IMG/VR virus record: IMGVR_UViG_2675903289_000016
DNA: 4,481 nucleotides
Reading direction: 5' to 3' (one strand)
Source of the DNA: a virus
Lineage: Duplodnaviria > Heunggongvirae > Uroviricota > Caudoviricetes
The position numbers were made by a program, and so were the translations under genes. Under the pieces are notes generated by a model, which was not told the origin of the DNA, did no database searches, and worked only from the letters and a program-made list of their open reading frames with translations. Positions within the stretch are counted from its first letter, which is position 1. Each line of letters starts with the position of its first letter. Of the stretch, positions 2,601 to 4,481 are shown piece after piece.

Positions 2601-3131
2601 TTATTTATTCAGTCCGGCGTCCTGTTCAAAAGGCTCGACATAAAAACTTTCAGCGCCTTTATTCACCTTGATACCGGCAATGCCTTTCACAGCATCCGGC
2701 TCCGCCAGGACGGCTTCCTTGTTCACTTCCTCTTTCGTGCGGATGAAACGCTCAAGCCCCATACGGCGCAGCATTTCAATCACACCTTCCACATCACGGC
2801 TGACGCTGCATGATGGCGTTCCCAGCCGCCATGACACCGTTCCGGTGGTCAGATTGGCTGTTTTGGTTTTGCCGCCGTTCGTCAGCTCATCACGGTTGGT
2901 TTTGCACCAGTCCTGAATCCCTTTAAAAAGCACTTTGATTTGCTTTTTAAGATTTTCAATCTGCGGCGTATAACGGGCGGTGATTTCTGCCACTTCGTCA
3001 TTCATCGCCGTTTCCAGGCGCAGCGCCTCTCGCTGAATATCTCCCAGGGTGCGGATATCACGGCTGACTTCTTCCCGGGTCTGCGGTGCCGCCTCGGCTG
3101 CGGCCTTTAATTTTGTAATGCGTTTAGCCAT
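2601..3131 (-). CDS. gam: Mu-type Gam, host-nuclease inhibitor / dsDNA-end-binding protein (176 aa)
   Basis: ATG at 3129-3131 with an AAGGA RBS about 10 nt upstream; stop TAA at 2601-2603. The translation carries the motifs I recall from phage Mu Gam: N-terminal MAK, NRDELTNGGKxKTANLxTGxVSWR, RFxRTKxExNKEAxLxEP and PFEQxAG near the C-terminus, at the same length (Mu Gam is about 174 aa). Recalled, not searched. Confidence 0.85.
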   Translation of the reverse strand: MAKRITKLKAAAEAAPQTREEVSRDIRTLGDIQREALRLETAMNDEVAEITARYTPQIENLKKQIKVLFKGIQDWCKTNRDELTNGGKTKTANLTTGTVSWRLGTPSCSVSRDVEGVIEMLRRMGLERFIRTKEEVNKEAVLAEPDAVKGIAGIKVNKGAESFYVEPFEQDAGLNK

Positions 3132-3142
3132 TTTGTTTTTCC

Positions 3143-3436
3143 TTATTGCAGTGTGCCTGATGCTTTATGCACGCGGTGGCGTTTAATGATGGCATCCGCT
3201 CCAAAAGACTGTGCAGATGCCTGAAATTCCGCTGAGAGAAACTGAATAATTGCAGGACTGTGATACTGGAGAATACTTGCATAAACGTCACAGAGTGACG
3301 TCGGCCTGTTATCCGTATCACGTTCTGTTTTCACATCCACTCCAATCTTTTCATGCACTTCAACACAGTCATTGCCTGCCAACTTTTCGTCATGCGAAAC
3401 ATGATTAAATTCAAAAATAACGCGTACTTTGCTCAT
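3143..3436 (-). CDS. Small hypothetical protein (97 aa from the MSKV start), paralog B of a tandem pair
   Basis: The longest ORF reaches 3463, but the ATG at 3434-3436 has a GGGG(T) RBS, lies 4 nt after the upstream stop, and gives MSKVRVIFEF, matching paralog A. Stop TAA at 3143-3145. About 44% GC. Confidence 0.6.
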   Translation of the reverse strand: MSKVRVIFEFNHVSHDEKLAGNDCVEVHEKIGVDVKTERDTDNRPTSLCDVYASILQYHSPAIIQFLSAEFQASAQSFGADAIIKRHRVHKASGTLQ

Positions 3437-3440
3437 GGAA

Positions 3441-3713
3441 TTACCCCTGTTGATTAAATTCATTACCGTTAATAACCCCGGAAGCCATGCCTCTGTCTTT
3501 CATGAATGCACTGGCTTTCATTGCCACAAACTCTGCGAAGTTTCTGCTTTCTGCCAGCATAACCACCCCAAAAATCATGGCGGGTCCATTATCTTTCTTC
3601 TTTATTCCGGTTGAACGTATATCCAGACTTACCCCTCTGTGCGTGCTGCCATCAGAGTTTTTGCAGATAACATCTTCCTTGTATTCGAAAATAATGCGTA
3701 CGACTTTACTCAT
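3441..3713 (-). CDS. Small hypothetical protein (90 aa), paralog A of a tandem pair
   Basis: ATG at 3711-3713 preceded by GAGGA; stop TAA at 3441-3443. N-terminus MSKVVRIIFEY and C-terminal AEFVAMKASAF segment match the downstream gene. About 43% GC. Confidence 0.6.
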   Translation of the reverse strand: MSKVVRIIFEYKEDVICKNSDGSTHRGVSLDIRSTGIKKKDNGPAMIFGVVMLAESRNFAEFVAMKASAFMKDRGMASGVINGNEFNQQG

Positions 3714-3991
3714 CCTCTGGTCCTCGTTCTGTTTGGATAACTGACCCGGCGTCTAACCTCACGGCAGAACCGAATCATGGCATTAAAGGCTTCTTCCTCC
3801 GTCACCGCTTCCGGTATCCCCGGAACCAGTAACTGCTCCTGTTCATCACGTCCATGACGCGCCATAACCTCAATCACATGCCGTACCGTGGCAGGCTTTC
3901 CGGCAACTATCGGCAATGCACCTTCCGGCAGGACGTAACCAAACTCAATAAGACCACTCGACCACGCCCATGCAATGAGATTTTTTTTCAC
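3710..3991 (-). CDS. Hypothetical protein (93 aa), GTG start
   Basis: Minus-strand ORF whose first codon is GTG (plus 3989-3991 = cac), preceded by GGGAGGTG. Codons 2-4 form an A8 run (plus T8 at 3981-3988). Stop TGA at 3710-3712 overlaps the next start (ATGA). About 53% GC. Confidence 0.5.
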   Translation of the reverse strand: MKKNLIAWAWSSGLIEFGYVLPEGALPIVAGKPATVRHVIEVMARHGRDEQEQLLVPGIPEAVTEEEAFNAMIRFCREVRRRVSYPNRTRTRG

Positions 3992-3992
3992 C

Positions 3993-4247
3993 TCACACCT
4001 CCCAGTAAACCGTGCAGCCGCTGATGCGGGTGGCCTTCACACGGCGGCGCAGGCCGTTGGTCTGTATGGTGATTTCAATTTCACCGGTTCCCTGCACGTT
4101 GCCTACCGGCGGCGTGGTTTTCAGTGCAAAACGTTGCGGATAGCGCTTACTGCGTTCCAGTACCGCACCGGCAAGTTCGGTCAGACGGCGCGCGCTGTTC
4201 AGGGAGTCGAATAAATTCATTTTGTTACCGCAGGATTGCATATTCAT
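3993..4247 (-). CDS. Hypothetical protein (about 84 aa; the longest ORF reaches 4259)
   Basis: Minus-strand ORF with stop TGA at 3993-3995. A GAGGTG Shine-Dalgarno sits inside the first codons of the longest ORF, so the start is more likely the ATG at 4245-4247 (or 4239-4241) than 4257-4259. About 55% GC. Confidence 0.5.
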   Translation of the reverse strand: MNMQSCGNKMNLFDSLNSARRLTELAGAVLERSKRYPQRFALKTTPPVGNVQGTGEIEITIQTNGLRRRVKATRISGCTVYWEV

Positions 4248-4259
4248 ATAACACCTCAT

Positions 4260-4481
4260 TTAGCTGACTTGTTTCGCACCAACAGAACGGCATATTCCGC
4301 TGTAAACTTCTGTCGCACCTTCGCGATCAAGTCCGGCAGATATCACCATTCGTGTGCGGTCATTAAATTCAAAAAGTAAATCGCCACATTCTTTATTTTC
4401 GGCCAGTGAAATCACCTTCACGTTATCGAAATTAACCAGGTAAAAGCGTCCGTAAATATCAGGAATATTAAATACCGCCAT
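4260..4481 (-). CDS. Hypothetical small protein (73 aa as drawn); ATG lies exactly at the window edge so the true start may be further upstream
   Basis: Minus-strand ORF from ATG at 4479-4481 to TAA at 4260-4262. AT-rich (about 42% GC by hand count) compared with its downstream neighbour. Contains the exact 14-mer attaaattcaaaaa (4362-4375), also present at 3404-3417, encoding FEFN in both genes. Confidence 0.5.
   Translation of the reverse strand: MAVFNIPDIYGRFYLVNFDNVKVISLAENKECGDLLFEFNDRTRMVISAGLDREGATEVYSGICRSVGAKQVS

Follow-up and report, generated by a model that had tools for sequence, protein, structure and literature searches.

Two adjacent small genes on the minus strand of a viral DNA of 4,481 nucleotides (IMG/VR record IMGVR_UViG_2675903289_000016; the whole stretch is called the window below) were analysed: open reading frame (ORF) A at positions 3441–3713 and ORF B at 3143–3436. 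The window corresponds to the early ("semi-essential") region of an Escherichia coli Mu-like transposable prophage, with every gene on the minus strand. Sequence comparison suggests that both ORFs are genuine coding genes of the superfamily of gene 7 of phages Mu and D108, very probably in the case of B and probably, as a remote branch, in the case of A. The gene-7 slot itself appears to be an exchangeable cassette, in which a head of ~10 codons and the flanks stay near-identical while the body is replaced by synonymously saturated old alleles. Taken as a whole, the explanation that we favour, by some distance short of certainty, is that A and B are gene-7 early cassette genes whose products are likely binders of a variable partner.

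Relationship of ORF B to gene 7 of D108 and Mu

ORF B encodes a protein of 97 amino acids (MSKVRVIFEF...ASGTLQ; WP_000049310.1) assigned to phrog_2230 (E 1.8e-38). The mechanically called ORF opens further upstream, at 3463; the ATG at 3436 was taken as the start, because both the RefSeq annotation and the family alignment support it. ORF A encodes 90 amino acids (MSKVVRIIFEY...NEFNQQG; WP_000049428.1) and belongs to phrog_4107 (E 1.7e-54). A first-pass annotation, made from the sequence alone, had recognised no known family for either ORF. This did not hold, since B turned out to be kin to D108 gene 7 and, more remotely, to Mu gene 7, and the families are already catalogued as PHROGs.

In the first pass of an hmmsearch with a B profile (database of 3356 ORFs), a family of 89-amino-acid ORFs from prophages of the Mu-proper type was retrieved at E 1.6e-5, and this family proved to be gene 7 of phage D108 (100% identity). 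After convergence of the B profile, Mu gp7 and A were the only named sub-threshold families. Profile–profile comparison by hhalign gave a probability of 97.7% for B against the D108 gp7 family, with E 1.6e-12 over 74 columns. D108 gp7 matched Mu gp7 with a probability of 69% (E 4.3e-5, 87 columns), and B merged with D108 gp7 matched it with 93% (E 3e-7, 87 columns). ORF A, compared with the merged alignment of B, D108 gp7 and Mu gp7, reached 74% (E 2.8e-5, 74 columns). Reversed-sequence controls of these family comparisons all gave E≥0.1. In addition, phrog_2230, the family of B, matches Mu gp7 over its full length (E 0.009). Because of the profile matches to D108 gp7 and Mu gp7, B is placed in the Mu/D108 gene-7 (E6) family. 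Mu gp7 compared with A or B alone gave nothing significant (hhalign E 0.1–0.2; no BLASTP match), and its link to the two ORFs emerges only through D108-type intermediates.

The multiple alignment of the family displays an M-[A/S]-K-V-...-I-x-E head, a central G-P turn, an S/A-P-x-I-I helix and a conserved glycine in the C-terminal region. The members share a size of ~85–97 amino acids and a position in the early operon of a Mu-like phage, downstream of MuB/kil and upstream of gam, and both A and B carry the M-[A/S]-K-V-(x)-[IV]-[IF]-E head. The B/D108 branch does not extend beyond Enterobacterales, where it occurs in E. coli, Salmonella, Yersinia, Cronobacter, Citrobacter and Kluyvera. As a modest added insight, phrog_4107 (A), phrog_2230 (B and D108 gp7) and phrog_10252 (Mu gp7/E6) would thus appear to form one superfamily.

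ORF A as a putative diverged copy of ORF B

The first-pass annotation had described the two ORFs as tandem, diverged paralogues sharing N-termini and 17 of 19 nucleotides at their 5' ends. Both ORFs, the N-termini and the shared nucleotides (19-mers at 3409–3427 and 3683–3701) were recovered as described, on the minus strand, and the paralogy is upheld by three comparisons. BLASTP aligned A with B over 76 residues at 22% identity (E 6e-4). The Smith–Waterman score of 50 exceeded that of shuffled controls (mean 23.9, standard deviation 4.3; z=6.1) and was matched by 1 of 5000 shuffles. Finally, comparison of the A and B family profiles by hhalign gave E 3.3e-5 and a probability of 72% over 78 colinear columns, with E 0.65 for the reversed-sequence control. 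It appears from these comparisons that A is a second, far more diverged tandem copy beside B.

A narrower relationship must be weighed here, namely that A and B are homologous only over a 5' patch of ~30 nucleotides (10 codons) and not over their whole length. Such a patch could have arisen by gene conversion or recombination at the cassette junction, or by constraint that acted convergently on the region of translation initiation and on the first beta-strand. In the codon-aligned nucleotide sequences, A and B are 83% identical in the first 10 codons and 28–43% identical elsewhere, which is the background level. The first hhalign run of A against B aligned residues 1–45 only, and the left recombination junction of the cassette falls at the conserved head. 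With the fuller family alignments, however, the 74–78 colinear columns at E ~3e-5 extend well past this patch, and their reversed controls stay at E≥0.1. Furthermore, when 15 families of small early genes from Mu-like phages were compared all against all (105 pairs), full-length alignments were obtained only within the group of A, B, D108 gene 7 and Mu gene 7, whereas alignments between unrelated pairs did not exceed ~30 columns. The two proteins are also alike in length class, in a predicted order of beta-hairpin followed by helices, in the DNGP/DNRP turn and in the C-terminal glycine. We therefore regard homology restricted to the 5' patch as improbable.

Several results nevertheless weigh against full-length kinship of A with B and gene 7. 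The A–B link is moderate (hhalign probability 72–74%), with a pairwise signal that leans heavily on the N-terminus: after removal of the first ~11 residues, the score was marginal and barely above the shuffles, 228 of 5000 of which were as good (p ~0.05). Against the D108 family alone, A gave a weak hhalign match (E 0.0096, 19 columns). The AlphaFold models of both proteins consist of an N-terminal beta-hairpin followed by helices, and they are of low confidence (predicted local distance difference test, pLDDT, of 51 for A and 57 for B, from shallow alignments), so that a shared fold is at most tentative; fold searches with these models were uninformative. Along the same line, A gave E 0.2 against Mu gp7 by hhalign and E-values of 0.04–1 against the family by HMMER. 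An exhaustive HMMER search of 1.84e9 representative proteins with the A profile returned only A-family proteins or fragments from E. coli, plus spurious repeat proteins, and B was not reached at library-wide significance.

The motifs proposed in the first-pass annotation fared unequally. The central DN(G/R)P element of A and B aligns by every method, whereas the C-terminal AEF segments are shifted by ~5 residues relative to the profile alignment, in which F62 of A is paired with F66 of B and G75 of A with G79 of B. The C-terminal helices themselves align, and the AEF match is probably coincidental.

Allele exchange at the gene-7 slot

To define alleles, prophages with a Gam protein 93–100% identical to that of the window were compared. 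In this set, B falls into two classes, with 93–100% and 57–60% amino-acid identity to the window, while A forms classes of ~100%, ~90% and ~80% identity that assort independently of the B classes. The variation is sharply bounded. Sliding DNA identity between allele classes is 40–83% over the body of B (3420–3151) and 70–97% over the body of A (3690–3481). By comparison, the block holding the 5' head of B (3450–3421) and the block spanning the B stop and the gam start (3150–3121) are 97–100% identical in four full-length comparisons. The conserved head of B, encoding MSKVRVIFEF, lies at 3407–3436 and marks the left junction of the variable cassette, the two-class body of B extending over 3151–3420. 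The corresponding head of A, encoding MSKVVRIIFEY, lies at 3681–3713 and contains the 19-mer at 3683–3701; between the A classes, the 30-bp block at 3720–3691 is 97–100% identical and that at 3690–3661 is 77–93% identical, the variable body of A being placed at 3481–3690.

Nei–Gojobori estimates of nonsynonymous (dN) and synonymous (dS) divergence were then considered for these genes. The dN/dS ratio is 0.13–0.31 for A and 0.26–0.39 for B, and dS between the B classes is 0.9–1.2. For gam, dN/dS is 0.06–0.09 with dS of 0.11–0.19; for kil and the 93-amino-acid gene, dS is 0–0.03 and dN/dS is not meaningful. Since the ratios for A and B lie at 0.13–0.39, both are taken to be real coding genes under purifying selection. 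The high dS in B, set against 0–0.19 in the flanks, points to old alleles that were swapped by recombination at the gene boundaries. The description of the pair as fast-diverging in the first-pass annotation thus gives way to exchange of old alleles as cassettes.

The same pattern is seen in a separate phage lineage. When Mu was compared with a prophage carrying a gene 7 identical to that of D108, kil, gene 6, gene 8, gene 9 and gam were mostly 95–100% identical in DNA, while the body of gene 7 was only 30–42% identical and its first ~30 nucleotides 82%. This gene-7 swap agrees with the report that ORF7 of SfMu is identical to that of Mu and less than 50% identical to that of D108 (PMC4406740). 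Among the sequences collected, at least six to eight gene-7 allele groups can be distinguished.

Distribution and copy number

For the comparative analysis, gam, the downstream neighbour of B, was used as the anchor; 103 gam-anchored loci were gathered from species-representative genomes and IMG/VR with all their ORFs searched locally, and copy patterns were counted over 108 gam-anchored loci. The first-pass annotation had asked whether homologues recur next to gam in other prophages, and they do: the A–B tandem is present in 41 of the 108 loci. A D108-type gene only is found in 28 and a Mu-type gene only in 14, B stands without A in 2, and 22 have no member, four of which are from Rodentibacter, Kluyvera and two Orbaceae. 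One further locus (L070) holds frameshifted fragments of A and B. ORF A was never found without B in these loci and is limited to this E. coli prophage lineage. At least one family member is present in each of the sampled enterobacterial Mu-like phages, and the gene-7 family is absent from the sampled Mu-like prophages of Gilliamella, Orbaceae, Rodentibacter and Pseudomonas, which still carry gam.

A prophage in E. coli DLI.5a matches a 661-bp query (3100–3760), which covers A, B and their flanks, at 100% identity; there the region lies downstream of genes for a Mu-type repressor, a ner-like protein, a transposase and an AAA-ATPase (MuB). The region was found in 232 of 5426 complete E. coli genomes and also in two Stx-phage records, in which it is annotated as an inserted Mu-like phage.

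Several frameshifted or truncated variants of A and B occur in assemblies, including P0067, P0068 and the L070 locus mentioned above. A further E. coli protein of 67 amino acids (P0030) is a natural A::B chimera, in which residues 1–49 of A are joined to residues 80–97 of B at a common "FG". It was considered as a sign of in-register recombination and rejected as such: residue 49 of A joins residue 80 of B, and because this join is out of alignment register, the chimera looks like an illegitimate deletion.

Operon context and protein properties

Neighbouring genes were assigned with Pfam and PHROG, and synteny with Mu was checked against AF083977. The early setting beside gam proposed in the first-pass annotation was borne out, the pair lying in an accessory region between kil and gam. 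The start codon of A overlaps the stop codon of the preceding 93-amino-acid gene in an ATGA at 3710–3713, as read from the sequence, and a GAGG run ends 8 nucleotides upstream of the A ATG. At the A–B junction (3437–3443), the TAA stop of A (3441–3443) is followed by a 4-nucleotide spacer and the ATG of B, and a Shine–Dalgarno-like GGGG run lies inside the 3' end of A before this ATG. The short spacer and the GGGG run within the end of A make it probable that A and B are translationally coupled. The stop of B is separated from the gam start codon by 11 nucleotides. A scan of the minus strand from 2950 to 4050 revealed neither promoter-like nor terminator-like sites, and an Rfam scan gave no match. 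The early Pe transcript is known to span the semi-essential genes, which mostly have no known function (PMC3820752; PMC4553209). From this arrangement, A and B appear to be co-transcribed internal cistrons of the Pe early operon, with probable translational coupling.

The guanine–cytosine (GC) content of A (42.9%) and B (43.5%) is lower than that of gam (52.4%), the 93-amino-acid gene (52.8%) and kil (55.1%), in keeping with the first-pass figures of ~43–44% against ~53–55% for the genes upstream. Low GC is not special to the pair, as the genes for the 73-, 124- and 64-amino-acid proteins in the window lie at 39–42%. The predicted isoelectric points differ widely: 9.3 for A, 6.3 for B, 4.8 for D108 gp7 and 5.6 for Mu gp7. 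The products of A and B are likely to be small, soluble cytoplasmic proteins of ~90 residues, their sequences carrying no catalytic, DNA-binding or membrane signature.

The remaining genes of the window, all on the minus strand, follow the early order of Mu-like phages. The first in transcription order, just after MuB, encodes a 73-amino-acid protein (4260–4481, phrog_3375, 41.9% GC). Among prophages with near-identical kil and gam, it occurs in discrete allele classes of 74–100% identity, and these classes suggest that it may be a second cassette-like slot. It is followed by a Kil-like gene (3993–4259, phrog_2679) and by the 93-amino-acid gene (3710–3991, phrog_1518), which has no Pfam match and for which "host nuclease inhibitor" is an annotation label only. 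The latter gene is variably present among otherwise near-identical prophages, being missing in 13 of ~45 close relatives; both this gene and ORF A are lacking in E. coli CI5 and locus L038. Beyond A and B, gam (2601–3131) encodes a Mu Gam-like DNA-end-binding host-nuclease inhibitor (PF07352, E 5.1e-42, 143.8 bits against a cut-off of 28.3) that shares 57% identity with Mu Gam; neither A nor B is Gam-like. Past gam lie a masked stretch and then gp11-C, gp12-like and Myb-like genes, assigned by Pfam or PHROG.

The masked stretch is a run of N at 2103–2594, which corresponds to 8004–8495 of the DLI.5a prophage locus (L001) and there covers the N-terminal part of the coding sequence of a gp11-like protein and a 145-bp AT-rich intergenic region between gam and gp11. 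In two related prophages, L003 (1362–1904) and L004 (862–1404), gam and the gp11-like gene are separated by an extra ORF of ~180 codons, which is lacking in the window. A single ambiguous base is present at position 574, within the region of the overlapping 64- and 124-amino-acid ORFs. The DLI.5a prophage (NZ_CP103972, 3500065–3518725) is inserted in bglJ, adjoining yjjQ, and its late side looks degraded, with a truncated tail-protein pseudogene and a frameshifted recombinase only ~3 kb past the lysis genes. In Mu itself (L002), gp6 and gp13 matched each other by hhalign with a probability of 67% over 21 columns centred on their CxxC pairs, and this match suggests that both may be zinc-ribbon proteins.

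Possible function of the gene-7 products

The data best support a putative role as a small binding protein with a variable partner in the early lytic phase, in view of the early accessory position by kil and gam, the lack of co-variation with neighbouring genes, the sharply bounded allele exchange and the duplication. In such a scheme, A and B would bind and modulate their partner, which would be a host factor or a component of host defence, and the exchange of alleles together with the A/B duplication might broaden or shift target specificity. The host-takeover or anti-defence reading put forward in the first-pass annotation would fit the gene context and the cassette-like variation. That the partner is indeed a host factor or defence component is a proposal to which we give slightly less than even weight.

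Some observations count on the other side. Searches of A and B against Pfam, NCBIfam, PADLOC and PDB sequences gave no match. The counts over the 108 loci are not independent events, since many of the loci are near-identical E. coli prophages. Moreover, the retention of a family member in every sampled enterobacterial Mu-like phage could equally mean a phage-internal role.

Such a role would have the gene-7 family serve the replication, transposition or regulation of the phage itself, for example as a modulator of MuA, MuB or Gam or through a semi-essential function such as arm, and not host targets. The retained copies lie in one operon with A, B, kil and gam, and the short distance between B and gam has a parallel in Kluyvera, where the homologue is similarly spaced from its gam. 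The semi-essential early region has also been reported to hold replication, immunity and regulatory functions (PMC4553209). However, a phage partner should co-vary with the alleles, and no co-varying one was seen: MuB, kil, gam and other neighbours are 93–100% identical where B alleles are only 57–60% identical, and gene 7 of Mu and of D108 cannot be aligned at the DNA level. The absence of the family from the gam-bearing prophages sampled in Gilliamella, Orbaceae, Rodentibacter and Pseudomonas points in the same direction. A purely phage-internal role is considered unlikely.

The genes might instead be "moron" genes, expressed at a low level from Pe in the lysogen and conferring host benefit or superinfection exclusion by protection against other phages. 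Low-level Pe transcription over the semi-essential genes has been described in Mu lysogens, and some of these genes are possibly beneficial to the host (PMC3820752). The lower GC of A and B relative to their immediate neighbours and the cassette-like variation would fit this as well. In contrast, the two genes have no promoter of their own on the coding strand and are embedded, with probable translational coupling, in a lytic early operon; neither has a PADLOC match, and their sequences contain no membrane or signal features. We consider a moron role to have only a slim chance of being correct.

A resemblance to RraB, a regulator of RNase E, was examined as a candidate identity for A and B and was largely refuted. 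Weak matches to PF06877 (E 0.005–0.05, 15–17 bits, one helix-turn segment) came from 7 of 22 family members, and these seven all belong to the D108-gp7 type and are closely related. These scores lie under the gathering cut-off of 23.3 bits, and A, B and Mu gp7 gave no match. The hhalign comparison with six RraB orthologues yielded a probability of 1.5% over 24 columns, corresponding to one helix, and profile searches of PDB sequences retrieved no RraB-like chain. An RraB-like activity is thus very improbable.

Significance and comparison with known systems

Although Mu is among the classic model phages, the majority of its semi-essential early genes are without an assigned function. The gene-7 families had been catalogued and functionally uncharacterised, and our literature search turned up no functional work on Mu gp7/E6 or related proteins. 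What is added by the present analysis is the probable union of three separately catalogued orphan PHROG families and the recognition of their slot as an apparent recombination-bounded hypervariable hotspot in two separate phage lineages. This pattern marks gene 7 and the A/B pair as a concrete candidate for host-takeover or anti-defence activity in Mu-like phages. Mu and D108, which are almost isogenic apart from gene 7, form a natural allele-swap pair. Failing such activity, the pair would count as ordinary accessory genes of a phage, still uncharacterised, and interest would grow if the slot proved to be a counter-defence locus.

The closest counterpart of B is the 89-amino-acid product of D108 gene 7 (phrog_2230), annotated as a hypothetical protein. 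The two are homologous over their full length and share the M[A/S]KV(R)VIFEFN head, the G-P-x-D turn, the S/A-P-x-I-I helix and the conserved C-terminal glycine, and D108 gene 7, like B, lies in the early operon between kil and gam. They differ in that their identity is only 20–28% and that D108 carries a single copy; in addition, genes 8 and 9 separate gene 7 from gam in both D108 and Mu, whereas B abuts gam. Mu gp7 (E6, 87 amino acids, phrog_10252) occupies the same slot as D108 gene 7 within a region otherwise 95–100% identical, and begins with a MAKVIIEI head. Both gp7 proteins are uncharacterised, and the match of B to D108 gp7 brings no mechanistic information.

A more distant comparison is with the anti-CRISPR loci of Pseudomonas phages. 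Speculatively, the gene-7 slot of enterobacterial Mu-like phages could be a dedicated hypervariable locus for counter-defence or host specificity, an early-operon analogue of those loci, in which the ~30-nucleotide head and the gene end would serve as junctions for swapping inhibitor alleles, and duplication would have stacked two inhibitors, A and B, each with its own target. This extension is doubtful at present, although not far-fetched. No sequence relationship of A or B to the loci of the JBD/DMS3 group was found, and the likeness is one of analogy. In the Pseudomonas Mu-like phages of this group, the anti-CRISPR and accessory loci hold small, unrelated-looking genes of ~50–150 amino acids in a fixed slot between conserved genes. 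They lie in the late (head) region and not in the early operon, unlike the A/B slot, and inhibition by their products has been experimentally demonstrated. Like the gene-7 slot, they hold cassettes that are exchanged among otherwise near-identical Mu-like phages.

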